DNA of 64,000 bases, taken from positions 32,670-96,669 of the forward strand of contig JACPPH010000006.1 in assembly GCA_016191105.1 (NCBI GenBank), given 5' to 3'. The DNA is from Candidatus Saccharimonadota bacterium. GTDB taxonomy: Bacteria > Patescibacteriota > Saccharimonadia > CAILAD01 > BJGX01. Positions 4,692 to 21,709 of this stretch are shown one piece after another. A program made the translations under genes and the position numbers. Below the pieces are notes generated by a model. That model worked only from the letters and a program-made list of their open reading frames with translations, was not told where the DNA came from and did not search any database. How positions within the stretch are numbered: the first letter of the stretch is position 1; the number at the start of each line of letters is the position of its first letter.

Positions 4692-5495
4692 CTAGAATTG
4701 ATTACGTTCACGCAAACTAAGCTTTTTGACTATCAAACGGATTGGTTTTTTGGCTGGCTCTACATGCAGGGGCGAAGTAAATTCCATACCGTCTTGATCT
4801 GTTATCTTTGCGCCAGGCGAACTGAGCTCGAGCTTGGCGGCATGTATTCTAAATAGTAAGTTTTGGGTTGGCTCCTCGCTGTTATTTTTGAATTTGTGTC
4901 CAAACAAAAGGGCATCGCTGGGTTCTTTGGAGTGCCCGGATGGCCCAAACGCCGTAATCCCGATAGGTGTGGATTGTTGAAATTCATCGCCCGACAAGTT
5001 GCGCAACCTTAATCTCTGAACTGGACCATTAAGCTCGAGCTTATCTAATTGGCAGCTTACGTCGGCTCGATTACTACTTTTTATGGTGAATATCTTTTCA
5101 AACAATACTACGCCACCGTTGAATTTTAATAGCTGGCGAGGCTCAATCCGCCTTGATCTAGTCGATGTTACAGCCTCTTGCCAAGTTTTGATTTTCAGCG
5201 CCACCGCTAAACGACTATTGGCCGGCTCGATTGGTATATAGCCGTAAGCTGTCTCCGGCGGCAGAAAGCCACTAATGCTTAATAAACTTTCGAATGTTGT
5301 ATCGTCACCGATGGCTATTAGAGTTTTACATTCAGCCGTTATATTGCCACGGAATTTAGGATTAGTTATTTGCTTGGTCGACGAAACAGACAGCTGTTTG
5401 CCCTCAATGCCACCAGAGCTAAGCTTGGCTATGATTTGAGCGAGTAATTCGTGTTGGGCGTCGCCCTTGGGTTCCTGGGCAATATAGCAGTACAC
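4692..5495 (-). CDS. NAD kinase / DAGK-catalytic-like protein, divergent (GGDG motif reads GDDT)
   Basis: Colinear similarity to NadK: LIAIGDDTTFESLL aligns with VVVGGDGSMLGA, and TPIGITAFGPSGHSKEPSDALLF with [20 protein letters not shown]. 267 aa. Confidence 0.4.
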   Translation of the reverse strand: MYCYIAQEPKGDAQHELLAQIIAKLSSGGIEGKQLSVSSTKQITNPKFRGNITAECKTLIAIGDDTTFESLLSISGFLPPETAYGYIPIEPANSRLAVALKIKTWQEAVTSTRSRRIEPRQLLKFNGGVVLFEKIFTIKSSNRADVSCQLDKLELNGPVQRLRLRNLSGDEFQQSTPIGITAFGPSGHSKEPSDALLFGHKFKNNSEEPTQNLLFRIHAAKLELSSPGAKITDQDGMEFTSPLHVEPAKKPIRLIVKKLSLRERNQF

Positions 5496-5851
5496 TAACG
5501 CACCACCCGAACCATGCCGCTAACTAGGGCGTTTTTGTCGACCACCAGGGTAGAGCTTTGTAGTTCAGCCTGCACCTCGGCACTATTATGTACGGCAATC
5601 TCTTCTTTGGCGTAAGCCTTGCCCTGTAAGAACCCATCGATAATGATGGCTCTAGCGTTAATTTCGGCTTTGGCCCGACCGTTCTTGCCAATTTCTAACA
5701 GGCCAGATGAATTTATACTGCCACTAAAACTGCCGTCAATATGTACATCGGAGTTGGTATCAATGGCACCATGGCTCCTAACTCCAGCTGCAATCAGCAC
5801 GTCGTTTTCGGACTGAAGGGGGGTGAGGGAGCGCTTTTTGCGGAACAACAT
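5495..5851 (-). CDS. Bactofilin-family protein
   Basis: 118 aa with a repetitive beta-helical G/V/I pattern (VHIDGSFSGSINSSGLLEIGKNGRAKAEINARAIIIDG). Confidence 0.6.
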   Translation of the reverse strand: MLFRKKRSLTPLQSENDVLIAAGVRSHGAIDTNSDVHIDGSFSGSINSSGLLEIGKNGRAKAEINARAIIIDGFLQGKAYAKEEIAVHNSAEVQAELQSSTLVVDKNALVSGMVRVVR

Positions 5852-5862
5852 TTTTATAACCG

Positions 5863-6318
5863 CTATTTTTGTAGCGCCGTAGTTAGAGCTTGCTTTTCTT
5901 CGCCTGACAGGTTACTTTTGCTGGTACCCTGGTGGATTTGCTTAGCATATACACGAGTTGTGTTGCGAGAGTGTACACCGGTTAGAACCACACCGTCATG
6001 ATTACGATCTAGCAATGCTAAGGCAAAACTTTGATCGCCACCAGTATCGCCAAAAGGGTTGAATCGAATTAAGCCAAAGTTAGAAATGGCAAACTTTTGG
6101 TTTTTGTGCAACTTGGCGCAAAAAACCGCGAGCTCTTCGAGCTTTTGGTGGGCGTCTGTCACGGCTTTTGAGTAATTTTTTACCATTTCTTCAATCTGCT
6201 TTGCCTCGGCTCCCTTTAAAAACTGCCCGTATTTTTGTTGCAACTGCCACAATTGCCAGTAAGTAAAGCCCAATCCGCCTATCAACAAGATAATCAATAT
6301 CGTTACGAACCACTCCAT
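5863..6318 (-). CDS. Membrane-anchored hypothetical protein (DUF4446-like)
   Basis: N-terminal transmembrane helix (FVTILIILLIGGLGF) followed by a coiled region. 151 aa. Confidence 0.4.
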   Translation of the reverse strand: MEWFVTILIILLIGGLGFTYWQLWQLQQKYGQFLKGAEAKQIEEMVKNYSKAVTDAHQKLEELAVFCAKLHKNQKFAISNFGLIRFNPFGDTGGDQSFALALLDRNHDGVVLTGVHSRNTTRVYAKQIHQGTSKSNLSGEEKQALTTALQK

Positions 6319-6411
6319 GGCACCCCCTAATTTATATCCGTATTATACTTACTACTAAGCTTGCTTGGCAACAAGATCCAACAATAGTATGATAGCCCCA
6401 AAGGAGAAACT

Positions 6412-6756
6412 ATGGCTAAGAAAAAGAAGCATCGTAAAAAGTCAAAAGGCAAAGCGGCCAAACTGCAGCAAAAAAATACCGCCCAATTAGTAGATGGGGC
6501 AAAATCAAAGCAATCTGCCAAGAAAAGCGGCGCATCTGAGCTTAGCAACAGCTCAAGGCCAAGTAGCAGATCCAAATCATCTGTAGCCCAGACTAAACCA
6601 ACAGTAGAAACCATCGGGCTAAACCAAGATGTTAAAGCCGACGTTAGGCTCAGCCTATCTCTTATAGGGGTTATAGTAGCAGCCTATACAGTATTGTGGT
6701 TAATCTTACAATATTCTAGCTTTGGTAAATTCATATATCAAATTATAAAGCTGTAA
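6412..6756 (+). CDS. Small lysine-rich protein with a C-terminal transmembrane helix
   Basis: Strong ribosome-binding site (aaaggagaaactATG), a basic N-terminus and a hydrophobic C-terminus (LIGVIVAAYTVLWLIL). Confidence 0.45.
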   Translation: MAKKKKHRKKSKGKAAKLQQKNTAQLVDGAKSKQSAKKSGASELSNSSRPSSRSKSSVAQTKPTVETIGLNQDVKADVRLSLSLIGVIVAAYTVLWLILQYSSFGKFIYQIIKL

Positions 6757-8253
6757 TTACACCCTGTACTGTAGGGCCTCGCTAAAGTGCTCGGACTTGA
6801 TTTGCTCCGAATCATTCATATCGGCAATCGTGCGACTAACTTTTAGAACACGTATATAGGCCCGGGCGGTTAAGTTCATGTTATTTAAGGCTTGGCGGGC
6901 GAGCAACTCTACATCTGAGTCTAGGCTACAATATTGCTTAATGTGCTTGTTGGTCATCTCGTTGTTGCTACTAAAAGGCTCATCTTGGAAGCGACTAATC
7001 TGTATCTGTCGAGCTTTCTCGACTCGACCTCTAACCGATCTGGATGGTTCTCCAGCCACTCCTGCCAGAAGTTCATCGTTTTTGAGTTTTTGAACCGGCA
7101 CTACCAGATCGATTCTATCGAGCAATGGGCCCGAGACCTTAGTCTGGTAGCGATTGATTTGGGCTAGGCTACAGGTGCAGGCAGTTGAGCTGTCACCGCT
7201 AAAACCACAAGGGCAAGGGTTTTGAGCCGCTACCATTAGAAAGCGAGCCGGAAACTTATAGCTAGCACTGGCTCTGGCAACTGTTACCTGGCCTTCTTCG
7301 AGCGGTTGACGCAGCACCTCAAGCACATGACGTGGAAATTCTGGCAGCTCGTCTAGAAACAGCAGGCCACGGTGGGCCAAGCTGATTTCGCCAGGTTTGG
7401 GTGACTGACCGCCACCTATTAGAGCAATGTTGCTGGCGGTGTGGTGCGGGCTACGAAATGGGCGAGCGGTAATAATGTTGTCGGTTTGAACCCCAGCTAA
7501 GCTGTGAATGCTGGTGATCTCGAGCATTTCCTCGTAGCTAGGTGCTGGCAATATGCCAGCCAGGGCCTTGGCTAGTAAGGTCTTGCCGCTCCCAGGTGGG
7601 CCACTAAGCAAAATGTTGTGATTACCGCTGGCGGCTATTTCGACCGCTCGTTTAGCCTGAGCCTGGCCATAGATATTGCTCATATCGACTTCGCTTTCGT
7701 GGATTTTGCCAGATATGCCTTTGTGTCGTAAGGGGATAATTGCTTTCTCACCAATCAGGTGTTGGTAGAGTTGGCCAATGTCTTTTACAGGGTAGATGGT
7801 GATATCTTTAACCAGTGCAGCTTGCTCGGCAATCTCGGCTGCTATGTATAGCTCGCTAAGGCCACTCATTTTGGCGGCTTGGGCGGTGGCTAGGGCCCCG
7901 TTTACAGTTCTGGTAGAACCATCGAGAGCCAGTTCGCCATAAAAAGCCGAGGCTGGGCTAATGTGCTTAATTTGACCACTACTAGCTAGCAGGCTAACGG
8001 CAATAGCCAAGTCAAAACCGCTTCCGTTCTTGGGTAGATCGGCTGGCGCTAGATTAACTGTGATTCGCCGAGGAGGCAGGTGGAGATTGGCGTTCTTGAG
8101 TGCGCTCCTGACTCTTTCTTTGGCCTCGTCGACGGCTTTGTTGGCTAGACCCACGACTATGAAGGCTGGCAAGCCGTTATAAATGTCGGTTTCGACCTCA
8201 ATGTGGTAGCTTGTAAGCCCAAAGTGGGCGATTGTATTAACTTTTGTTAGCAT
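6757..8253 (-). CDS. comM: YifB/ComM-family Mg-chelatase-like AAA+ ATPase
   Basis: Walker A GPPGSGKTLLAKALAGILP, ChlI-like arginine finger region and a C-terminal domain. 498 aa. Confidence 0.9.
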   Translation of the reverse strand: MLTKVNTIAHFGLTSYHIEVETDIYNGLPAFIVVGLANKAVDEAKERVRSALKNANLHLPPRRITVNLAPADLPKNGSGFDLAIAVSLLASSGQIKHISPASAFYGELALDGSTRTVNGALATAQAAKMSGLSELYIAAEIAEQAALVKDITIYPVKDIGQLYQHLIGEKAIIPLRHKGISGKIHESEVDMSNIYGQAQAKRAVEIAASGNHNILLSGPPGSGKTLLAKALAGILPAPSYEEMLEITSIHSLAGVQTDNIITARPFRSPHHTASNIALIGGGQSPKPGEISLAHRGLLFLDELPEFPRHVLEVLRQPLEEGQVTVARASASYKFPARFLMVAAQNPCPCGFSGDSSTACTCSLAQINRYQTKVSGPLLDRIDLVVPVQKLKNDELLAGVAGEPSRSVRGRVEKARQIQISRFQDEPFSSNNEMTNKHIKQYCSLDSDVELLARQALNNMNLTARAYIRVLKVSRTIADMNDSEQIKSEHFSEALQYRV

Positions 8254-8467
8254 TTGAACCCCTTATAGGACGTTAACCTTGGACGAACTGCTGTGTTGCC
8301 TAGCTGTGCTACGGCTTCGCTGTAGGTTTACTACAACTCAGTCCGTTGCTCGCTAGCGCTTTGCACTTCATTCCAATTTTAACGTCCAAGTTTTGTTAGT
8401 CTTAAACCGAGGATATACAAACAAAATACGAACGTCAAGCATGGGCGACTTACTTTTTTGGTTATGA

Positions 8468-8500
8468 ACGAAAAAACCCCACCAGGGGTTTTTTCGACCC
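8468..8500. terminator. Rho-independent terminator downstream of the DAHP synthase gene (also reads as a terminator on the other strand)
   Basis: gaaaaaaccccaccaggggttttttcg. Confidence 0.6.
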
Positions 8501-8529
8501 AGTAGGGTTGCTAGGCAGCCACCCTTGCT

Positions 8530-9576
8530 TTAGCTGCTGAGTTGCTCGTAAGTGTATTCGATCATTTGCTCGGTTGTGCTCCAGTCCATGCAGGCGTCGG
8601 TAACCGAGAGTCCGTACTTGAGCTTAGTTCGGTCAACGGGTAGCTGGATAGGCTGTTTTCCAGCCTCAATGAAGCTTTCGACCATCAGACCCATCACATA
8701 CTCACGAGTCCCCGGTAGAGAGTCCACGACTTCCCGCCAAACAGCCTCTTGCCTCACAGGATCACCGCCGCTTTGGGCGTGGCTGCAGTCGATCATTACC
8801 AGATCGATCAAATTTTCCTTGCGAAGGAGTGACGAGGCGCTGCGAACACTCTTGGGGCTGTAGTTCGGGCCGTTTTTGCCACCTCTGAGGATCATGAAGG
8901 TGTCGGGATTGCCGGAGGTGTGATGAACCGCGCTACGACCATCGCGATCCGGGCCGAAGAGGCTGTTGGAATCTTGAGTGGCGATCATGGCATCGACGGC
9001 CATCTCGATGTTGCCCGAGGTGCCGTTCTTGAAGCCCGGTGGCATTGATAGTCCGCTGGCCAGTGCTCTAGCTAGAGGACTCTCGGTGCTTCTAGCGCCA
9101 ATGGCCGCTACTGACAGCAGATCACCAATGTATTGCGGGGTAACGGGATCAATCAGCTCAGAGCAGGTGGGCACACCCAGCGAGTTGATTTCCAGCAACA
9201 GACTGCGTGCTTGTCGCAAGCCCTCTTGGCCATCGTTCGAGCCGTCCATGTGCGGATCAACGATCAGCCCACGCCAACCCTTGCGAGTTCGGGGCTTCTC
9301 GAAGTAGACCCGCATGATGATCACCAGCCGGTCACCGAAACGTTTTATTAATGGCGCCAGACGTTTGGCGTAGTCCATGGCCGCCTCGATGTCGTGGATG
9401 GAGCACGGACCTACTATAAGCACTAGCCGATGATCCTGACGGTACATGATCCGCCGGAATGCCTGGCGAGCTGCTTCGACGGTTTCGGCCGCTGCGTCGG
9501 TCATCGGAAGTTCGATTGCCATCTGATTGGCGCTAATGAGTGGGGTGGTTTCTTTGATACGTAGATCGTAAAGCAT
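8530..9576 (-). CDS. aroG: 3-deoxy-7-phosphoheptulonate (DAHP) synthase, class I (AroG/F/H type)
   Basis: LVLIVGPCSIHD is the AroG signature. There is end-to-end similarity to class I-alpha DAHP synthases. I chose the internal ATG at 9576. Confidence 0.85.
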   Translation of the reverse strand: MLYDLRIKETTPLISANQMAIELPMTDAAAETVEAARQAFRRIMYRQDHRLVLIVGPCSIHDIEAAMDYAKRLAPLIKRFGDRLVIIMRVYFEKPRTRKGWRGLIVDPHMDGSNDGQEGLRQARSLLLEINSLGVPTCSELIDPVTPQYIGDLLSVAAIGARSTESPLARALASGLSMPPGFKNGTSGNIEMAVDAMIATQDSNSLFGPDRDGRSAVHHTSGNPDTFMILRGGKNGPNYSPKSVRSASSLLRKENLIDLVMIDCSHAQSGGDPVRQEAVWREVVDSLPGTREYVMGLMVESFIEAGKQPIQLPVDRTKLKYGLSVTDACMDWSTTEQMIEYTYEQLSS

Positions 9577-9681
9577 ATTGCTCTCCCTGTCGATTTGTGG
9601 GTGCGGTGGAAAGATCTTGGCAATTATGCTACTTTTGGCTAAAAAATGCAAGCATATGGAGGGGTTAAAATGACAATTGGA

Positions 9682-10743
9682 CTAGGCTTTATACCACTTG
9701 GCAGCGCTCTCGGGCGGCACCGTATTGATTATCATCCCCGTGGCTACTTCAAAGCCGCCCCAAATAATGCTACGGCCGGTTACTTTGAGCACAAACCGGT
9801 GATGCTCACTAATGCCCTCTTCCAGATAGAAGTTAAAGCTAATTAGGTGTGGGCAGAGTCGGCCCATGAGTTTTTTGAGAATCTCAGCAGTGGTGCGCAG
9901 GTCGTCTTGGCTAAACTGAGTAAAGCTGGTAACGGGCGTTTTTGGCATAATCCAGGCCTCGAACGGCCACTGACTGGCGTAAGGGCAGAAGGCTATAAAT
10001 TTGTCGTTCTCCCAGATTATGCGCTCGGCAGCATTTTGCTCGTAAGCGATTATGTCATTGAAAGGGTCGGAGTTCTTTTGGGTAAAATACTGTTCGATGG
10101 TTTGACTTTCAATCGTGAGCTTGGGTGGCATAACCGGAATAGCAAAAATCTGGCTGTGGGCGTGGGCCAGCGAGGCGCCGGCGCTATACCCGTCGTTATG
10201 AAAAACACTCACATACTCAATGGCTTTTTGGTTCTTGAGCACCCCAATCCGCTCCTGGAACACCTGCATAACCTTGGTAATCTGATTAACGCTTAAACTC
10301 GATAGCGGCCTATTACCCAATGGTGTGTCGATTACTATCTCTTGCATGCCGTAGGCTTGGGGGTTCATGGGGGTTAGAGCCGGAAACTTATTTTCGACTA
10401 CCCGCACTTGCCAGCTCCCGTGCTCGTCGTTGAGATCGAACACCTTCTTTTCTAGGTGGAGCTTAGGACTATTAGCGGTCTCGATTAGCTTATGTTCTTC
10501 TATCCTAGTGTCGAAGGGCCGTTTGCCACGATTGGGGGCAATAATAACATAGTATTCGTGCAAGTAGTCGCGACGAATCTCGGTAGCTATGCCGGCAGTA
10601 TCGAGCTTAATGCCGCTGTGCTGCGGATTGAGTTTTTGAGGGTTGGAATTCCCGTCATTCGGCCTATCAGAATTAACAGAAACAGCGCTCCGGTGGTGCA
10701 CTTGTCGAGCATGCTTGGCCCCAACAGCTGACTTATTATTCAT
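9682..10743 (-). CDS. GalT-family nucleotidyltransferase (galactose-1-phosphate uridylyltransferase-like, HIT superfamily)
   Basis: HxHxQ-type motif SLAHAHSQIF, with GalT-like N- and C-half architecture. The N-terminal extension is rich in basic and polar residues. Confidence 0.5.
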   Translation of the reverse strand: MNNKSAVGAKHARQVHHRSAVSVNSDRPNDGNSNPQKLNPQHSGIKLDTAGIATEIRRDYLHEYYVIIAPNRGKRPFDTRIEEHKLIETANSPKLHLEKKVFDLNDEHGSWQVRVVENKFPALTPMNPQAYGMQEIVIDTPLGNRPLSSLSVNQITKVMQVFQERIGVLKNQKAIEYVSVFHNDGYSAGASLAHAHSQIFAIPVMPPKLTIESQTIEQYFTQKNSDPFNDIIAYEQNAAERIIWENDKFIAFCPYASQWPFEAWIMPKTPVTSFTQFSQDDLRTTAEILKKLMGRLCPHLISFNFYLEEGISEHHRFVLKVTGRSIIWGGFEVATGMIINTVPPESAAKWYKA

Positions 10744-13303: not shown

Positions 13304-13696
13304 GGGGCTGACTAGCTTCGACATTGAATCTTGAAATATACCTGCAGGCCGGGTTGGAATGCACGTTAGCCGTTCCGCCAAACCTTAAGTGGCAAAACAC
13401 TTATGAGCAAACTGGTAAACGCTTTGCGCGTTGACAGCTTTGCACCAGCTTACGCTTAACCCGTGTAAGCCGCTGATTGTTCGACATCAGATAGAACCTG
13501 ACGCGTCAACCATCTGATTGCTTTCCGGATAGCCCCTTCATATCTGGAATCAAGCCAAAGATAGGGGAAGCATGTGCTTGTTTTGTTGGTTTTCTTAGAT
13601 AGCACAGCCTTCTAAAACACATCAAAGCTAACTACGCTTGTAGACGGTATATTGAAAGCTCGATGGACGAGGGTGCGATTCCCTCCAGCTCCACCA
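13304..13696 (+). ncRNA. ssrA: Transfer-messenger RNA (tmRNA, ssrA)
   Basis: 5' GGGGCTG pairs with 3' CAGCTCC, including the G3-U wobble expected of an alanine acceptor stem. The 3' end GGACGAGGGTGCGATTCCCTCCAGCTCCACCA matches the T-arm plus CCA of tmRNA. The ~390-nt length fits. An internal reading frame ends ...GCT TAC GCT TAA. Confidence 0.8.
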
Positions 13697-15226
13697 ACAG
13701 GAACTTTCAGAATTTTTTGAGCCAGACGAAAGGACTGCCTCGCGGCTTCGCCGCTCGGCTAAGCCGCTTTGCGCAAGGCGCAAAGCGGCAGAATCCCACG
13801 GCTCGCCAAACGAAACGGAAACGGATTTGTCCAAAAGCATGGGGTTCGTTCCGATCTTTTGGACAAATACCTTGATTTCCCCGAAACTCTCGCTCTGCGA
13901 GAGTTTTTCGGCTTTATTCGCGTCTAAAATCCACGCTCGCAAGGGTTGGAGCCAATTCTTTCCCGTTCGTCCAAAATCCTCCAAATCGTTCGCAAGAGAA
14001 ACTTTTTGCTTCAAAAGTTCTTCTTTTTTGGCGAGATAGTTTTCTTTGGGAATGTCGCCGTCAATGTAGGCGGAAACGAGCTTGTCTAGTTTCTCTTGCG
14101 TATCAGAAAGTTTGGATTTGAGATTTTGGACGAAAGATTGCGATGAGTGGATATCTTCTCTTTGCCATTCGTCTACTTGCTTTAGCATTTTCTCTGTCCA
14201 CTCATCGCAAATAGCAACGCTTTTGAGCTGTGCCTTCAGTTGCGCGGCAAGATTGCTTTCTTGCACATATTTTTGTGAACACACGCCTTTCTTTTTAGTG
14301 CAACGATAGTAGCGATATATTCCGCCGCACTTGCCGCGCGAAAATTGCGCCGTGATCGCCGAGCCGCACTCTCCGCAAGTAAGCAGTCCGGTAAATGGAA
14401 AATCGTGGCGTTGTTTTGATTTGCGGGGTTTGGCACGGCGCAATAAGACATTCTGCACGGCTTCAAAAAGCGTTGCGGAAAGAATTGGCTCAAAGCGTCC
14501 CTCGTGATATTCGCCCTTATGCTTCACCAAACCTAAATATGCTTGATTGGTGAGCATTCGCGATATGGACGCTTTGGCAAGTGGCGTTCGGTGCCGAGTT
14601 TCCAAACCAAGTTCAGCCAAAAACTCCGCCATAGTTTCCAATGTATGCGTTCCTTTGGCGTATTCCTCAAACGCACGGACAATTACTTTGGATAATGTCG
14701 GGTGCGGTTCAATGGTGCGCGTTTTCGGATTATTCACATAACCAAAGGGCGCTTTGGTCAGCCACTCTCCGCGGCGGAGTTTTTGGCGGATACCGCGATT
14801 GATATTCTCCACGAGATTATCGCTGTAATATTTGGATTGACCGAACGCCACTTGCAACATGAACAATCCTTGCGGCGTGGGCTCAAACCAAAATGTCGGA
14901 AAGCGCAAAGAAACGATTTTTTGCGTGTCCACGAGATAAATCACTTTGCCGCCGTCCACAGAATTACGCGCCAACCTGTCGGGGTGCCATGCGAGTATTC
15001 CCACGCCGTCCATTTTTTCAATCTCGCTTATCATGGCGGCAAACATTTCTCGCCCCGGTTTCTTTGCGCTTTTCGCCTCTGTAAATTCTTGGAGAATTTC
15101 CACATTTTCTCTGCGCGCATATTCTCGTAGCTCAAAGAGTTGAGCTTCAATACTCATAATTTGGTGGTCGTCATCCTCCGTTGATTTCCGAGCGTAGAGA
15201 AAATATTTTGGTTTGAGCATATTCAT
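13628..15226 (-). CDS. Large serine recombinase (resolvase/invertase catalytic domain, recombinase domain, zinc ribbon and coiled coil)
   Basis: N-terminal YARKSTEDD...SIEAQ catalytic serine motif, a central recombinase domain and a zinc ribbon CGECG...C..C. 532 aa. The 3' end of the ORF runs through IR-A and overlaps the tmRNA 3' end. Confidence 0.9.
   Translation of the reverse strand: MNMLKPKYFLYARKSTEDDDHQIMSIEAQLFELREYARRENVEILQEFTEAKSAKKPGREMFAAMISEIEKMDGVGILAWHPDRLARNSVDGGKVIYLVDTQKIVSLRFPTFWFEPTPQGLFMLQVAFGQSKYYSDNLVENINRGIRQKLRRGEWLTKAPFGYVNNPKTRTIEPHPTLSKVIVRAFEEYAKGTHTLETMAEFLAELGLETRHRTPLAKASISRMLTNQAYLGLVKHKGEYHEGRFEPILSATLFEAVQNVLLRRAKPRKSKQRHDFPFTGLLTCGECGSAITAQFSRGKCGGIYRYYRCTKKKGVCSQKYVQESNLAAQLKAQLKSVAICDEWTEKMLKQVDEWQREDIHSSQSFVQNLKSKLSDTQEKLDKLVSAYIDGDIPKENYLAKKEELLKQKVSLANDLEDFGRTGKNWLQPLRAWILDANKAEKLSQSESFGEIKVFVQKIGTNPMLLDKSVSVSFGEPWDSAALRLAQSGLAERRSREAVLSSGSKNSESSCWWSWRESHPRPSSFQYTVYKRS
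13691..13822. repeat. IR-A left copy (132 bp, GC-rich). It begins with the terminal CCACCA of the tmRNA.
   Basis: It is the reverse complement of 15254-15385 with 1 mismatch in 132 bp. It contains an internal perfect palindrome gccgctttgcgc..gcgcaaagcggc. Confidence 0.9.
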
Positions 15227-15253: not shown

Positions 15254-15385
15254 GGTTTCCGTTTCGTTTGGCGAGCCGTGGGATTTTGCCGCTTTGCGCC
15301 TTGCGCAAAGCGGCTTAGCCGAGCGGCGAAGCCGCGAGGCAGTCCTTTCGTCTGGCTCAAAAAATTCTGAAAGTTCCTGTTGGTG
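15254..15385. repeat. IR-A right copy (inverted relative to 13691-13822)
   Basis: 131 of 132 bp identical to the reverse complement. Confidence 0.9.
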
Positions 15386-15386
15386 G

Positions 15387-15520
15387 GATATTCTAAACTT
15401 TGCGCGAAACTATTTTGAAGGGAACTAGCCCGCCTCCGCTTCGCTCCGGCGGAACGCTCGGGCGCGGCGGAATTCCCCCCACACCCCCCTTCCGCCGCGC
15501 CCTCGCTTTGAAAGCCGCCG
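15387..15520. repeat. IR-B left copy (~134 bp, GC-rich). It starts 1 nt after IR-A right.
   Basis: It is the reverse complement of ~18625-18760. Confidence 0.85.
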
Positions 15521-15681
15521 CGCAGAAAATTCAGAAAAGAAAAGTGGTGTCGTGTTTGCCCCGCCCACCCATGCGCACACGACATCAATTTTGCTCCCCG
15601 AAACTACTGTAGCATAATTGGTCGCCATAGACTAATTGTATAACATCTGCTAAAATTCTTGCAAGAGCGATAATTTCCTTT

Positions 15682-15885
15682 ATGGCGAACGAAATTACAA
15701 AATTCGGTAAAAAGGTCAAAGAAATACGCTTGAAAAAGCGAATGTCGCAAGGCGACATCGCAAGAATTTTGGGCGTTCATAGGAGCTATATCAGTGGCCT
15801 AGAGCGCGGTATTCGCAACCCATCTCTTTTAACGGTTCAAAAAGTGGCTAAAGCGCTAAAAGTGAACGCAAAAGATTTAATATAA
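15682..15885 (+). CDS. XRE-family helix-turn-helix transcriptional regulator
   Basis: MSQGDIARILGVHRSYISGLERGIRNPSLLTVQKVAKAL is a classic HTH_XRE sequence. Confidence 0.85.
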   Translation: MANEITKFGKKVKEIRLKKRMSQGDIARILGVHRSYISGLERGIRNPSLLTVQKVAKALKVNAKDLI

Positions 15886-15902: not shown

Positions 15903-16679
15903 ATGAAAACGAAACTGAAGAAACTGAAGATCGGAATATGGACGTTTATTGTTGTGGCGCTTTTAGTTGCGGCAAAATTTCTGATTCACGCCTGGGGGCT
16001 CGAATACTTCTCGCTTAACGCCCTCTTTACGAGCGCGATCGCGGGAGCGATCTTCATCATGGGTTTCCTGCTTGCTGGAATTATGGCCGATTATAAGGAG
16101 GCGGAAAAAATTCCGGTGGAGCTTCGTTCGTCTCTTGAGAATATTTGGGAGGAGGGAAAGTTCTTCAGCCGTGATAAAAGAGAGTTCAATCTCTCAAAAC
16201 TTAATGACACCTTACTCTCAATAGTCCGGAATTTCTTTAAAGGCCTCGGGCACGAGGGCGACCACTACCGGCTCGATCCGTGCGTTGCGTCAGTCAACGA
16301 GCTTTCGGAGTCGTTTGGACAAATGGAAAAGCTTGGCATGCCACCCAACTATATCGTCCGGCTCGAGGGCGAGCAGGCCTCGGTACGCCGCCAGGTGCTG
16401 CGTGTCTATCATATCCAACGCACGCAATTCCTGCCTTCGGCACACATACTTGCAGAATCCCTCGCGCTCGGAATGGTGTTCCTGCTCCTCTTTGTCAAAA
16501 CGGAAGGATCGCCGGAGTCTATCGTGCTATTCGGATTCATATCGTATCTGTTCCTCTACGTCCGGCAACTCATTCGCGTTCTTGAGAAGCCGTTCAGGCA
16601 GGGCGATAATACGCTCGACGACGTGAGCCTATTTCTCTTGAAAAAGTTTGAGAAGGAATTGTCAGGACATACGGCATGA
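15903..16679 (+). CDS. Integral membrane protein, hypothetical
   Basis: Two N-terminal and two C-terminal hydrophobic helices. 258 aa. Confidence 0.45.
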   Translation: MKTKLKKLKIGIWTFIVVALLVAAKFLIHAWGLEYFSLNALFTSAIAGAIFIMGFLLAGIMADYKEAEKIPVELRSSLENIWEEGKFFSRDKREFNLSKLNDTLLSIVRNFFKGLGHEGDHYRLDPCVASVNELSESFGQMEKLGMPPNYIVRLEGEQASVRRQVLRVYHIQRTQFLPSAHILAESLALGMVFLLLFVKTEGSPESIVLFGFISYLFLYVRQLIRVLEKPFRQGDNTLDDVSLFLLKKFEKELSGHTA

Positions 16680-16698: not shown

Positions 16699-18579
16699 AT
16701 GAAAATTGCAAACGACCAAAAGAAAAGTAATCACCTGGAATGGATACTGACGGCGATTGCCGCCGGCACCTTCGTCGCGGGAATTTTTTTCAGTGTAATC
16801 AAATTGCCTCTGGCAGACTGGTTTTATTATATATCCTTGCTAGCTGGTGGGTTGCCAGTGGCAAGAGCGGCGACACGAACTCTCCTCCGGCGGAAAATAT
16901 CAATTAATGTACTGGTAACCATCGCAGCTATCGGAGCGCTGTATCTTGGACAAATCGCCGAGGCGGCGGCAGTGATGTTTTTCTTTGCTTTGGCGGAATC
17001 ATTTGAAAAATTTGGCAAAGCGCGTTCGCAAAAAGCTATAGCCGCACTGCTGGAGAGATCGCCGAAACTCGCCCGCCTGCAGGATGGCCGAGAAGTCGCG
17101 GTCGAAAAGGTTGGCGTCGGCGAAACCATAAAAATTCTGCCCGGCGACCTTATCCCTCTGGACGGGATAGTCAGCGGAGGCGACTCCGCAGTCGATGAAG
17201 CGGCTATTACCGGTGAAAGCGTCCCGAAGGAAAAGTATGCGGGACAAACGGTATTTGCCGGCACTATGAACGAAAACGGCTATCTGGAAGTCAGAGTTAC
17301 GAAAACCGCTTCCAATACCACACTTTCTAAAATAATTGTGCTTATCCAGCAGGCGCAAAAGTCCAAGCCTGAAATGCAGGAATTTCTGGACAGGTTTGCC
17401 AGCTTCTATATTCCAGCCGCTCTAGCTCTCGCGGCGCTTGTGGTTATTGTGCCGACCGTGTTTTTCGGACAGCCGTTTAGTCCCTGGCTTACCACGGCCC
17501 TGATTTTACTGGTTTTAGCCTGCCCGGATGCGCTGGTGGTGTCGGCTCCTGTGGCAGTGGCTGCCGCCATGGGCGGAGCTTCGCGCAGAGGAGTATTAAT
17601 AAAGGGCGGCAAATTTCTAGAGTCTTTAAGCAAGGTTAAAGCGTTTGCATTTGATAAGACCAAGACGCTTACTGAAGGGAGTTTGAAAGTGGCCGAAGTC
17701 ATAACTATGCATGGAGCAAGTGAGGAAGAAGTTTTGTCTGATGCCGCAGGACTAGAAAAATTCTCATCTCATCCATTGGCGGCTACCATTCAAAAATATG
17801 CTGCCGACAAGGGCGTCTCCGTTCATGATATGGAAGATTTCAAAAACATTCCCGGACGTGGAGGCTTGGCTAATTGCATGGTTTGTCCAACAAAAGATCA
17901 TGCCATTGGTAATTTGCAACATATCGGCGCAAGTATCAAGGTATGCAAGGATGTTTTGAAGGAAGTTGAGAGAATGGAATCGCTTGGCATGACAACGGTC
18001 ATTGTCAGCGAAGGCCCCAAAGTGATAGGGATCATAGGCATCACTGACCGCCTGCGCCAAGAATCTAAAAACGTTATCACCTCGCTTAATTCGCTTGGAG
18101 TCACACCGGTTATGCTTACGGGCGATAATGAACGGGCCGCCCGTCATATAGCGGAGCAAATAGGAATTAACGAAGTTCATGCGGCCTTGCTTCCTGATCA
18201 AAAAGCCGAACTGGTGAGAGTATTGCAGCAAAGGTATGGAAAAGTCGCCATGGTGGGAGACGGCGTAAATGATGCGCCATCTTTGGCGCGGGCTGATGTA
18301 GGCATAGCGATGGGCGGAGGCGGGTCGGATGTTGCAATCGAGACAGCTGATGTCACTTTGATGAACGATGCCCTAGGCACTATTCCTTACCTGCTTAGAT
18401 TAGGACGCCAAACCTTCAGCGCAGTGAAGCAGAATGTATATGGCTCGCTTGCAGTAAAGGGTGTGATCCTTCTGCTCGGCTTATTTGGTCTGGTGCGGCT
18501 TGATGTGGCTGTGGCAGTTGATGCGGGCGCAGCCATAGTGGTTATATTGAATGGCCTACGATTGTTTAATGCGAAGTAA
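16699..18579 (+). CDS. P1B-type (heavy-metal) P-type ATPase without an N-terminal HMA domain, with variant motifs
   Basis: TGES, CPD (where CPC is usual), DKTKTLTEG (where DKTGT is usual), GDGVNDAPSL, and a transmembrane core like CadA/ZntA. I chose the internal ATG at 16699. Confidence 0.8.
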   Translation: MKIANDQKKSNHLEWILTAIAAGTFVAGIFFSVIKLPLADWFYYISLLAGGLPVARAATRTLLRRKISINVLVTIAAIGALYLGQIAEAAAVMFFFALAESFEKFGKARSQKAIAALLERSPKLARLQDGREVAVEKVGVGETIKILPGDLIPLDGIVSGGDSAVDEAAITGESVPKEKYAGQTVFAGTMNENGYLEVRVTKTASNTTLSKIIVLIQQAQKSKPEMQEFLDRFASFYIPAALALAALVVIVPTVFFGQPFSPWLTTALILLVLACPDALVVSAPVAVAAAMGGASRRGVLIKGGKFLESLSKVKAFAFDKTKTLTEGSLKVAEVITMHGASEEEVLSDAAGLEKFSSHPLAATIQKYAADKGVSVHDMEDFKNIPGRGGLANCMVCPTKDHAIGNLQHIGASIKVCKDVLKEVERMESLGMTTVIVSEGPKVIGIIGITDRLRQESKNVITSLNSLGVTPVMLTGDNERAARHIAEQIGINEVHAALLPDQKAELVRVLQQRYGKVAMVGDGVNDAPSLARADVGIAMGGGGSDVAIETADVTLMNDALGTIPYLLRLGRQTFSAVKQNVYGSLAVKGVILLLGLFGLVRLDVAVAVDAGAAIVVILNGLRLFNAK

Positions 18580-18624
18580 ATACCAAAATGAATTTGCGGC
18601 GTGCCAGCTTCGCTGGCCTGAATG

Positions 18625-18760
18625 GCGGCGGCTTTCAAAGCGAGGGCGCGGCGGAAGGGGGGTGTGGGGGGAATTCCGCCGCGCCCGAGCGTTCCGCCGG
18701 AGCGAAGCGGAGGCGGGCTAGTTCCCTTCAAAATAGTTTCGCGCAAAGTTTAGAATATAC
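18625..18760. repeat. IR-B right copy (inverted)
   Basis: Reverse complement of 15387-15520. Confidence 0.85.
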
Positions 18761-18812
18761 CCCTCCGGAGCTTCGCAGATATTGCTTGCAAAGCCCAAAA
18801 GGGGGGCGGTGG

Positions 18813-19712
18813 TCACGATTGGAGGGCCGTGGCCAGGTTGGAGGCGAGGTTGCGGATGGCCTGCTTGCCGTCGTCGGTGATGATCGGGATCGACCGCGAG
18901 TAGCTGCTCTCGGTTGCCAGACCGATGTTGAAGTTGATCTTCGGTACCTCGTACTCGACTGGCTTTTCAGGTTCGTGACGGTTCTTGTTCTCCCGGAGTC
19001 CGGTCATCATCGAGGCGTGGGTCTGCCAGGCCGGCATCTCGTCCTCGAGCTGCCATGGCTGGACGATGCCGCCGAGGCTCAACGCCACTTCGTAGTCGCC
19101 GACCTGGAATCGGGGGCGACCGAAGTGACGCAGGGGGCCTCCGCGCTCTTCCGTCATGATCTGCTCGACGATCTGCTCACTCGTGCACTCGGCTCCGATC
19201 GTCGTCAGGTTGATGCTGATGACCTCGAAGTCGAAGGTGACAAGCTCGCTGTCGGGCTCGACCTGTGCGGTGACGTCGATGTGCTGAACTGCGCGGTCGA
19301 TCTGGAGGGACTCGGCGAGCCCCACCTCGACCTGGTCACCGACGTAGGCGGCACTGAGATGCAGCAAGAACCAGGTGTCGTCCAGCTTCTGGACCTCGAC
19401 GGTGGTCTTGAAGAACCGACCAACGCCGTCGTAGTCGTAGTGGTAGCTGTACGAGCCCACCGCTTCGATGCCGGCGTCGATCTTGGTGAAGAGGTCGGTC
19501 AGGAACCGATCGTCTCCACCATACATCTCCTCGACGAGCGGCTTCAACAACGCGATCCCGACGCCACCATCCTGGATCAGCTTCTTCTCGGTGGCATTCG
19601 ACCCGGCCGTCTGGCCAGAGGCGAAGAGTCGGAGTGCGTTGCGAACGGCCTCGATCCCTTCGAGTGGGATGCCGCTCAGGTATTCCGTGGTATTGACGGT
19701 GAGGAAGCTCAT
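18813..19712 (-). CDS. Hypothetical protein, GC-rich (~60%), foreign-looking
   Basis: Ribosome-binding site ggaaggag 8 nt upstream of the ATG. Varied amino-acid composition. The antisense 391-aa ORF is an artefact. Confidence 0.55.
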   Translation of the reverse strand: MSFLTVNTTEYLSGIPLEGIEAVRNALRLFASGQTAGSNATEKKLIQDGGVGIALLKPLVEEMYGGDDRFLTDLFTKIDAGIEAVGSYSYHYDYDGVGRFFKTTVEVQKLDDTWFLLHLSAAYVGDQVEVGLAESLQIDRAVQHIDVTAQVEPDSELVTFDFEVISINLTTIGAECTSEQIVEQIMTEERGGPLRHFGRPRFQVGDYEVALSLGGIVQPWQLEDEMPAWQTHASMMTGLRENKNRHEPEKPVEYEVPKINFNIGLATESSYSRSIPIITDDGKQAIRNLASNLATALQS

Positions 19713-19830
19713 GGCTTCACTCCTTCCTGTAGGTGTGGGGTGCGACCGCTTTCACGGCCCTAGACTTACTAGAGATGCTGACAATGTTACCATAAGTAAT
19801 TTAGTTTGTCAATACCCTGGTGTTAATCCC

Positions 19831-20587: not shown

Positions 20588-21709
20588 CTAGCTTATTAGA
20601 GTTAGTAGTTTTGGAAAATAGTAGACAGTGGCACCCTTTGTGCCTCTAACAGATCTTATGGAATCGATCACCCTATCTTCTAATAATCTGTTAACCAAGG
20701 AACTGGCAGTAATTCTAGAGATTTTCAGTGTCTTTATTACATGGGAGATTTGGAATACTGGTGTTTCAAATATCATGTTAACCATTCTGTTCATATTGGG
20801 GGATTGTGAACCTTCGTACCTATCAAGCAATATCTCATTTAGCTTGGTTATCTTTTCTACAAGACTGATCGATATGCCACACTGTTCCTTTAAGGATTCC
20901 AGGAAGAATATTATCCAAGGGGTGATGTCGCCAGTTGTGTCAACATAGTGAAGCATCTGACGGTATTCCTTTGCTTTTTTCTCGAAGTATTCACTGGTGT
21001 AAAGGACGGGGGCAGAAAGTGCACCCTGGTATTGAAGAAGGGCAGGGATTAACATTCTACCAATTCTTCCATTCCCATCCTCAAATGGGTGGATAGCCTC
21101 AAACTGATAGTGGAAGATTGCAGTTTTTATCAAGGGCGTCTCATCTGTGGAGTTAAAATAGTCAACCAGATTATCCATATATCCTTCCACAGCGGTGTAG
21201 AAAGGTGGAACATAGGTAGCTTTTTGTATGGAAGTGCTCTTGTTTTTACCTATCCAAACATCTTTTGACCTAAATTTACCAAGAGCTCCGTTATGAGGGG
21301 TTCTATGTAAGAGAACATAGTGAAGTTGACGTATCTGGTATTTTGAAATGCCGCCCTTTTGATCTTTTATCTTCATAGCAAGACGCATCGCATCACGATA
21401 ATTTGCAACTACGATGGTATCTTGTTGGGGCGCTTTGCCTGTTGCGTCAAGAATGAAAACATCCTTAGAATCGGTGATTGTACCTTCTATCTTGGAGCTT
21501 AGAGAAGCCTCTCTTGTTAGTAGGGGCTTTATCAAGTGTTCTGCATTAGATATTTTACTGTGTGCAGTTTGGAGCATACCTAATGCATACGAAGCTTCCG
21601 CTAACTGCCGGTAGTACTTGCTGGGATCAAGATTTTTTAAGGGTAAGTATGATGGTTGACCGTATTTTACATTCATGATATATAACTTTCTATGAATATT
21701 ATACATCAT
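20588..21709 (-). CDS. Fic/Doc-family protein (AMPylase-type toxin-like), with a putative N-terminal auto-inhibitory motif
   Basis: HPFEDGNGRIGRMLIPALL matches HPFx[DE]GNGRxxR. SSKIEG matches [ST]xxxE[GN] near residue 70. AT-rich promoter upstream at 21710-21760. Confidence 0.85.
   Translation of the reverse strand: MMYNIHRKLYIMNVKYGQPSYLPLKNLDPSKYYRQLAEASYALGMLQTAHSKISNAEHLIKPLLTREASLSSKIEGTITDSKDVFILDATGKAPQQDTIVVANYRDAMRLAMKIKDQKGGISKYQIRQLHYVLLHRTPHNGALGKFRSKDVWIGKNKSTSIQKATYVPPFYTAVEGYMDNLVDYFNSTDETPLIKTAIFHYQFEAIHPFEDGNGRIGRMLIPALLQYQGALSAPVLYTSEYFEKKAKEYRQMLHYVDTTGDITPWIIFFLESLKEQCGISISLVEKITKLNEILLDRYEGSQSPNMNRMVNMIFETPVFQISHVIKTLKISRITASSLVNRLLEDRVIDSIRSVRGTKGATVYYFPKLLTLIS

Follow-up and report, generated by a model that had tools for sequence, protein, structure and literature searches.

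A probable metal-exporting ATPase with DKTKT and CPD motifs from a conserved, mainly saccharibacterial subfamily

The phosphorylation motif DKTGT is regarded as an invariant hallmark of P-type ATPases, and pattern-based annotation depends on it. What, then, is a gene whose motif reads DKTKT: an error, a decaying copy, or a pump that works with a different residue? The question is raised by a 64,000-nucleotide (nt) stretch of DNA from Candidatus Saccharimonadota bacterium (GenBank assembly GCA_016191105.1, contig JACPPH010000006.1; hereafter the window), which encodes an ATPase of 626 amino acids (aa) with Lys in place of the motif Gly and, in transmembrane helix 4 (TM4), CPD in place of CPC. 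We consider it probable that this protein is a functional metal exporter derived from the P1B-2 (ZntA/CadA-like) pumps. It belongs to a distinct conserved subfamily found mainly in Saccharibacteria, here called the K-clade (DKTKT plus CPD). The gene and its motifs lie as follows.

16699..18579, + strand: gene for a P1B-2-like P-type ATPase of the K-clade, 626 aa, open reading frame (ORF) with ATG start
16726..16887, + strand: two N-terminal helices (MA and MB) directly after a tail of about 9 residues, without an HMA domain
17209..17220, + strand: canonical TGES dephosphorylation motif of the A-domain, aa 171-174
17521..17529, + strand: CPD replacing CPC in TM4, Cys275-Pro-Asp277 (TGC CCG GAT), within CPDx6P, aa 275-277
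17653..17667, + strand: phosphorylation motif DKTKT (GAT AAG ACC AAG ACG), aa 319-323, with Asp319 and with Lys322 for Gly
17767..17775, + strand: Ser-His-Pro of the nucleotide-binding domain (N-domain), an adenine-binding motif of the SEHPL type with Ser for Glu, aa 357-359 (HP at 358-359)
17854..17946, + strand: GRG (GxG, G386-R-G388) followed by an inserted Cys/His cluster, C393-x2-C396-x4-H401-x6-H408-x7-C416, in the N-domain
18118..18126, + strand: TGD motif of the P-domain, aa 474-476
18256..18279, + strand: GDGVNDAP hinge motif, aa 520-527
18412..18459, + strand: TM5 T572-x5-Q578-N579-x7-K587, P1B-2 signature including the built-in counter-ion Lys
18520..18552, + strand: TM6 D608-A-G610-x7-N618, the P1B-2 DxG(x)7N signature

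The ATG at 16699 agrees with the NCBI call for P0001, an identical database protein (626 aa, named 'cation-translocating P-type ATPase [Candidatus Saccharibacteria bacterium]'), and with the orthologue at locus L011. An in-frame TTG at 16648 was rejected as the start; it overlaps the preceding gene, which ends at 16679, and is unsupported by the P0001 call or the L011 N-terminus.

Are the two variant residues real? DKTKT is present in 119 and CPD in 118 of the 120 nearest database proteins, which are 68-100% identical and, where they have a name, almost all assigned to Saccharibacteria. Across 119 full-length cluster representatives, 296 of the 626 positions are at least 99% conserved, every catalytic motif included, and the K-clade conserves Asp319, Lys320, Thr321, Thr323, TGES, TGD, GDGxNDxP, HP, GxG, the TM4-6 ligands and the counter-ion Lys. 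In 17 species-representative genomes the Lys322 codon is AAA or AAG and the Asp277 codon GAC or GAT. Relative to the L011 orthologue (83% nucleotide identity), nonsynonymous divergence (dN) is 0.055 and synonymous divergence (dS) 0.93, giving dN/dS = 0.059. The identical protein and cassette have also been assembled independently, at 100% identity, in at least eight other sequencing runs or samples. A sequencing or assembly error, or a dying ZntA-like gene in which Lys and Asp are accidental, might be entertained on the grounds that DKTGT is near-invariant in P-type ATPases (PMC10654040 and general knowledge) and that the genome was assembled from a metagenome, with the locus in a mobile region rich in repeats. 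The reading frame is, however, full length with the remaining motifs intact, and homologue conservation, synonymous codon variation at both residues, the low dN/dS and the independent assemblies together exclude both error and pseudogene decay; the probability that we leave to them is vanishingly small. An earlier inspection of the same letters without database searches (the sequence-only reading) had rightly noted both variants. It had also raised a degenerate transporter, which does not fit a large family with all catalytic motifs intact, a dN/dS of 0.06 and variant residues kept through synonymous changes, and had allowed for a DKTKT that reverts to Gly in close relatives, a prospect that the 119 Lys-bearing homologues dispose of.

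Clustering at 50% identity collapses the K-clade to essentially one cluster, with the next relatives at most 46% identical. The best 150 representatives comprise 140 DKTGT proteins, the vast majority with CPC, and 8 proteins with DKTRT and CPC. At the position of Lys322, all 140 DKTGT relatives have Gly, and Arg occupies it in the 10 aligned full-length DKTRT proteins (8 representatives and 2 cluster members); at the position of Asp277, 137 of the 140 have Cys.

Which class of pump is this? Against the NCBIfam models, the window ATPase scores 559.6 bits (E 9e-168, cut-off 346.25) for the P1B heavy-metal family TIGR01525 and 491.4 bits (cut-off 313.5) for TIGR01512 (IB2, Cd), while TIGR01511 (IB1, Cu), at 380.6 bits, falls below its cut-off of 397. 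Of the solved structures, that of the zinc pump ZntA (4UMV, E 4.9e-107) matches best, with P1B-4 and copper pumps behind it. The E1-E2_ATPase plus Hydrolase architecture, the A-domain TGES, the P-domain TGD and GDGxNDxP are all present; the strict signature DKTGT[LIVM][TIS] is missed by DKTKTLT, which retains the Asp, the Lys and both Thr. Nucleotide binding follows the P1B pattern of HP and GxG (SSHPL and GRG) instead of the P2-type KGAPE, and in an alignment with the ZntA structure ZntA has Thr at the Ser of SHP.

Within P1B, the P1B-2 signature consists of CPC, T(x)5QN(x)7K and DxG(x)7N (PMC4932525). TM5 and TM6 of the window ATPase fit it exactly, and TM4 alone departs from it, by the change of the second Cys to Asp. 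K587 and D608 align with K693 and D714 of ZntA, in which Cys392, Cys394 and Asp714 are the metal ligands and Lys693 the counter-ion (PMC10246665). D608 and N618 are invariant in the K-clade; the TM6 Gly varies in the main clade (DA[I/A/G]). The P1B TM4 motif has been listed as (C/S/T)P(C/H/P) (PMC9387928); the window CPD retains the Cys-Pro and the x6-P spacing, with an Asp that is not among the listed third-position residues. The Cu-type P1B-1/P1B-3 motifs YN(x)4P (TM5) and M(x)2SS (TM6) are absent from the window ATPase, as are the P1B-4 motifs SPC (TM4) and HEGxT (TM6), where it reads CPD and VDAGAA. By its motifs, then, the window ATPase falls within the known classes, P1B-2-like in TM5 and TM6 and different in TM4 only, and its CPD site adds a further selectivity motif to those on record for P1B pumps, here on a ZntA-like scaffold.

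Compared with ZntA (E. coli / Shigella sonnei, PDB 4UMV/4UMW) and CadA, the protein has in common the eight-helix core, CPx-x6-P in TM4, the TM5 T(x)5QN(x)7K, the TM6 DxG(x)7N with its ligand Asp, TGES, TGD and GDGxNDxP; it differs in CPD, in DKTKT, in a 3-residue N-domain insertion with a Cys/His cluster, and in having no N-terminal HMA or CxxC domain. The latter is common but not universal in P1B-2, and many relatives of 620-650 aa likewise do without it. Pfam returns E1-E2_ATPase and Hydrolase only, with no match to the HMA domain PF00403 in the window ATPase, and a cytosolic tail of about 9-12 residues precedes the first hydrophobic helix. A low-confidence AlphaFold2 (AF2) model, built from a 42-sequence alignment and used for helix counting only, places helices at residues 10-33 and 39-63; the ZntA alignment begins at residue 37, equivalent to ZntA residue 150. 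Much of the sequence-only reading thus stands: a P1B ATPase with canonical TGES and GDGxNDxP and no N-terminal HMA domain. An alignment outside P1B, for which it had allowed, is not borne out, and the metal-ligand residues of TM4-6, whose conservation it had left to be checked, are kept as a full set across the K-clade.

Where did the variants arise? In a neighbour-joining tree with 100 bootstraps, the K-clade (DKTKT/CPD) has a support of 100, as do its grouping with a DKTGT/CPC sister clade and, separately, a DKTRT clade; the three together reach only 71. The sister clade was reached through gene-neighbourhood look-ups (L014, with the ATPase at 5773-7722, L017 and L036) and comes from Saccharibacteria and other Patescibacteria of the candidate phyla radiation (CPR), at 50-51% identity to the window ATPase. 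It has in common with the K-clade the N-domain CxxC-x4-H insertion, SSHPL, TGES-x-P-K, APSLA and a bestrophin-like upstream partner. Unlike the K-clade, it keeps DKTGT and CPC and has an N-terminal CDHC motif, and its fourth putative ligand is a Cys directly after the His (HC) instead of H408/C416. Its codon at the position of Lys322 is GGA or GGG, which could reach AAA or AAG through AGA or AGG.

The DKTRT clade is large and CPR-centred (Microgenomates, Shapirobacteria, Beckwithbacteria). Represented by P0122, it has in common with the K-clade the basic residue for Gly, the N-domain CxxC...HHC insertion, the lack of an HMA domain and a similar length, but it has Arg and canonical CPC, is 45-46% identical and stands outside the pair of K-clade and sister. 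DKTRT occurs in 119 of 120 relatives of P0122, in 118 of them along with CPC and the CxxC insertion; the remaining one, P0475, combines DKTKT with CPC, which indicates that this site can switch between Arg and Lys while TM4 keeps its CPC. DKTRT also turns up in P0129 and P0151, which branch in other parts of the tree, each paired with a DKTGT protein; from their placement, ZntA-like pumps have exchanged this Gly for a basic residue on at least three to four occasions. A set of 50 loci from the Planctomycetes-Verrucomicrobia-Chlamydiae (PVC) group, matched via a common P-domain peptide, was excluded: L049, the one locus read, proved to be a P1B ATPase of a different kind, unrelated and carrying DKTGTFT, and the remaining 49 were dropped because the same motif filter missed them.

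CPD on its own has a precedent, which in the literature searched is confined to three rhizobial CopB-like or P1B-3-like enzymes (PMC5552934). These P1B-3a ATPases of Rhizobiales and a second ATPase at L011 have CPD in common with the window ATPase, in the TM4/TM6-equivalent helix, but are Cu-type enzymes with YN(x)4P and MSxSS, a His-rich or HMBD N-terminus and canonical DKTGT; their CPD arose independently of that of the K-clade. The second L011 ATPase (8072-10243; CopB-like, HMBD N-terminus, DKTGT, CPD in TM4) sits in a copper island of the CsoR/YHS/DsbD type, 6 kb from the K-clade orthologue.

Comparison of the K-clade with the 140 DKTGT relatives points to a further site. Directly behind the adenine-binding GxG loop (G386-R-G388), three inserted residues create C393-x2-C396-x4-H401, where about 135 of the 140 have a gap. 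Among 119 K-clade members, conservation is 100% for C393, C396, H401 and H408 and 99% for C416; together with Cys275 of CPD, the three cluster cysteines are the only cysteines of the protein. The same insertion reads C-x2-C-x4-H-C in the sister clade and C-x2-C-x3-H-H-C in most of the DKTRT clade, so that the first three residues are common to the three clades and the fourth ligand is shifted. This invariance and pattern are as expected of a tetrahedral metal site, and the cluster, a candidate cytosolic metal site, most likely binds a metal ion. Such an ion could have a structural role or could make the cluster a cytosolic sensor standing in for the missing N-terminal HMA; its position beside the nucleotide pocket may allow a regulatory role. 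The signature residues of the P1B N-domain are described in PMC3475447. The statement that the ATPase has no metal-binding domain was accordingly half right, correct for the N-terminal HMA but overlooking this invariant cluster, which suggests a previously unremarked coupling of metal sensing to ATP binding in HMA-less pumps.

What would the pump carry? We propose an ordinary Post-Albers cycle, in which Asp319 would be phosphorylated, TGES would act in dephosphorylation and Lys587 of TM5 would serve as the built-in counter-ion. The transmembrane site would be formed by Cys275, Asp277 and Asp608, replacing Cys, Cys and Asp. Such a set of one thiolate and two carboxylates should disfavour the very soft Pb(II) and Hg(II), and would favour borderline or harder divalents: Zn(II), Co(II), Cd(II), possibly Fe(II) or Mn(II). 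In ZntA, the change of one CPC Cys to His or Ser abolishes Pb binding and keeps Zn/Cd binding, as Dutta 2007 is summarised in PMC9387928. The ligands and the gene neighbourhood together suggest a divalent-metal exporter, with Zn/Co/Cd-like substrates favoured and Pb disfavoured.

The neighbourhoods of the family bear on this. Most K-clade members sit behind a gene for an ArsR-family regulator. The commonest member, P0061 (635 aa, 69% identical to the window ATPase), is found with identical sequence in 326 assembly blocks, always within the same module of an ArsR-family regulator (108 aa), a 94-aa membrane protein, the ATPase and a 95-aa TFIIB-type zinc-ribbon protein. The module adjoins a large serine recombinase, and its flanking genes differ in every genome (loci L005-L010, about 5000-9600 in each), a constancy and variation that give the pattern of a mobile resistance cassette. 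A tRNA-Asn gene lies immediately upstream of the module in L005-L009, with none detected in L010; tRNA-Asn is also found in L021, L022 and L025. The ArsR cassettes have no long inverted repeats like those of the window element described below. The ArsR partner lacks cysteine altogether; of the four alpha5 ligands of CzrA it retains two, and the positions of the remaining pair have Glu or Asp next to them. In L101, the K-clade ATPase comes directly after a CDF cation-efflux gene, a cupredoxin and DsbA.

A substrate outside Zn/Cd/Co, such as Mn(II), Fe(II), Ca(II), Mg(II) or copper, would make the K-clade a new P1B substrate class, and the change of Cys to Asp does yield a two-carboxylate site, accompanied by K-clade-specific changes around it (Thr283 to Ala, and Tyr581 and Gly582 in TM5). 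The occurrence of CPD in the rhizobial and L011 CopB-like enzymes, and of some K-clade members in Dsb, cupredoxin or copper-resistance islands, points the same way. Against this stand the P1B-2 signature in TM5/TM6, the lack of YN(x)4P/MxxSS and HEGxT, and the TIGR01511 (Cu) score below cut-off. The partner regulator is moreover of the ArsR/SmtB type, the CDF exporter is adjacent in one genome, and the one thiolate kept argues against Ca or Mg. We therefore think this alternative unlikely, though worth keeping in view; the unusual substrate class that the sequence-only reading had floated is possible.

What does Lys322 do? Across HAD enzymes at large, the third residue after the nucleophilic Asp is variable. 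The structure of the CopB ATP-binding domain shows the phosphate held by five groups: the Asp and the Thr of the motif, the main-chain amide of its Lys, the Thr of TGD and the Lys of motif III. The Gly position of the motif is not among these contacts (PMC3475447). Lys322 is probably not a loss of function but a tolerated, selected change, which would tune phosphoryl transfer, the kinetics of the E1P/E2P phosphoenzyme states, or contacts with the A- or N-domain. Thousands of sequences that are strongly held by purifying selection have Lys, or in a sister family Arg, where Gly is expected, and the exchange has several independent origins; this amounts to a natural experiment on the part that this position plays in the phosphorylation loop.

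One could instead suppose a catalytically altered, non-pumping ATPase, a sensor or regulator, or a protein that forms no normal aspartyl-phosphate due to Lys322, kept for a role other than transport. Replacement of the signature Gly in three large or independent lineages, the extra Cys/His cluster near the ATP pocket and the lack of a metalloregulator at the window copy would all agree with it. Conservation of the catalytic motifs, the full TM4-6 ligand set and the counter-ion Lys would nevertheless be unexpected were transport lost, and the module spreads horizontally with an ArsR regulator and adjoins a CDF exporter, as is typical of resistance determinants. We rate this as highly unlikely.

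The case for a working metal exporter has its weak points, and the following observations count against it. The Gly of DKTGT is near-invariant elsewhere, so that normal catalysis with Lys is assumed; no acidic residue consistently co-varies with the change of Gly to Lys or Arg in four independent lineages; and the literature searched contains no mention of DKTKT or DKTRT in a P-type ATPase and no experimental work on any K-clade member. The metal assignment is based on hard/soft ligand reasoning and gene neighbourhood only. The closest solved relative of the ArsR partner is NolR, a non-metal regulator, with the alpha5 site half conserved, and no metalloregulator of any kind accompanies the window copy. 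The AF2 model (mean predicted local distance difference test (pLDDT) 63, predicted template-modelling score (pTM) 0.42) gives no three-dimensional support for the Cys/His site, being worst at both regions of interest, with pLDDT under 50 over residues 278-323 and 380-412. Metal efflux carried by a mobile element would in itself be an ordinary function; it is the Gly replacement and the N-domain cluster that are points for P-type ATPase specialists.

How does the gene travel? In the window it is the last gene of a three-gene operon inside an inverted-repeat cassette next to a tmRNA gene, with the following surrounding features.

13304..13696, + strand: tmRNA gene (ARAGORN), integration landmark
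13628..15226, - strand: large serine recombinase with Resolvase, Recombinase and Zn_ribbon_recom domains, flanked by repeat A
13691-13822 and 15255-15386: inverted repeat A and A', about 135 nt, 99%; A starts at the CCACCA 3' end of the tmRNA
15385-15521 and 18625-18761: inverted repeat B and B', 137 nt, 99% complementary, bracketing the three-gene operon
15628-15656: promoter-like site with an extended -10, upstream of the XRE gene
15682..15885, + strand: XRE-type helix-turn-helix (HTH) regulator, 67 aa, first operon gene (PF01381, E 3.4e-17)
15903..16679, + strand: 258-aa membrane protein of a distant bestrophin-like family

The operon runs from the XRE gene through that for the 258-aa membrane protein to the ATPase, with intergenic gaps of 17 and 19 nt. 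The XRE protein consists of the HTH domain only and has no sensor part, so that metal-responsive control is not evident in the window copy. That the neighbour inside the cassette is an XRE and not an ArsR or MerR regulator had been read correctly from the letters; the pairing is peculiar to this copy, most of the K-clade being ArsR-associated as described above. The 258-aa protein has no Pfam match of its own but belongs to a widespread family, of which a 51%-identical homologue scores 31.6 bits against PF14023 (Bestrophin-like), just under the cut-off of 32. Homologues lie directly upstream of the sister-clade ATPases in L014-L016 (L014:5001-5768) and upstream of the K-clade ATPase in L101 (4177-5004; 35% identity, E 3e-50). 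This adjacency in both clades marks the ATPase and the bestrophin-like protein as a conserved gene pair and not chance neighbours. Bestrophin-like homologues are often seen in islands with DsbA, DsbB, DUF305, SHOCT and PAP2 genes.

The recombinase ORF runs through repeat A into the 3' end of the tmRNA. A' and B form one contiguous 267-nt block that is the reverse complement of B' joined to A, and the joined B'-A sequence is the junction expected of a circularised element. B' contains a G+C-rich hairpin just past the ATPase stop codon. We propose that the ATPase gene is cargo of a small serine-recombinase integrative element at the tmRNA, and that it would be co-transcribed with its XRE and bestrophin-like partners. 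A search of the element's right end for the tmRNA 3' end as a direct repeat gave only an unconvincing match of 10 nt. An assembly artefact as the source of inverted repeat B was ruled out: independent short-read contigs from other samples break inside the repeat.

A broader reading would unite the K-clade, the DKTRT clade and the DKTGT/CxxC sisters as an undescribed, CPR-centred P1B subclass with three properties. First, metal would be sensed directly and allosterically by a Cys2-His-Cys/His site in the nucleotide-binding domain, beside the adenine pocket, which would take the place of the HMA. Second, phosphoenzyme chemistry would be altered by the basic residue that stands for the Gly of DKTGT. 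Third, the Cys/Asp/Asp site is proposed to give a substrate preference unlike that of any characterised P1B class. The bestrophin-like protein would in addition be an accessory subunit, or would serve an electrogenic pump as a charge-compensating channel. We put this forward tentatively, as a combination that may well not hold in full.

With identical copies in hundreds of assemblies, the K-clade is very mobile cargo in Saccharibacteria. Among PLSDB plasmids there is no K-clade member, the best ZntA/CadA-like match reaching about 49% identity at most. Two K-clade ATPases with DKTKT, CPD and CxxC, 68% identical to the window ATPase, occur on contigs of 63-64% G+C binned as Actinomycetes and Mycolicibacterium (L033:3965-5905 and L035:975-2810); the gene itself has 62-63% G+C. 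The neighbours in L033 look actinobacterial (TetR, a thiamine pyrophosphate (TPP) enzyme and a beta-lactamase-like gene). These copies bear on gene flow between epibionts and hosts, and suggest gene transfer between Saccharibacteria and actinobacterial hosts, or possibly mis-binning.

Some minor features of the window complete the description. Promoter-like sites TTCAAA-18-TAGAAT, matched to the consensus only, face outward in each B arm (15390-15419 on the - strand and 18727-18756 on the + strand), the left one pointing at the recombinase gene. Right after the cassette, positions 18588-19763 have a G+C content of 55-57%, compared with 47% for the whole window, and hold overlapping ORFs of 299 aa (- strand, no Pfam match) and 391 aa (+ strand). 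Further high-G+C DNA, including a MOSC-domain gene, lies at 22-25 kb, and the island may reach beyond the inverted-repeat cassette. A Fic/DOC-family gene occupies 20588-21709 on the minus strand, and the tRNA-SeC that ARAGORN calls inside it on the opposite strand (20690-20783) is probably a false positive.

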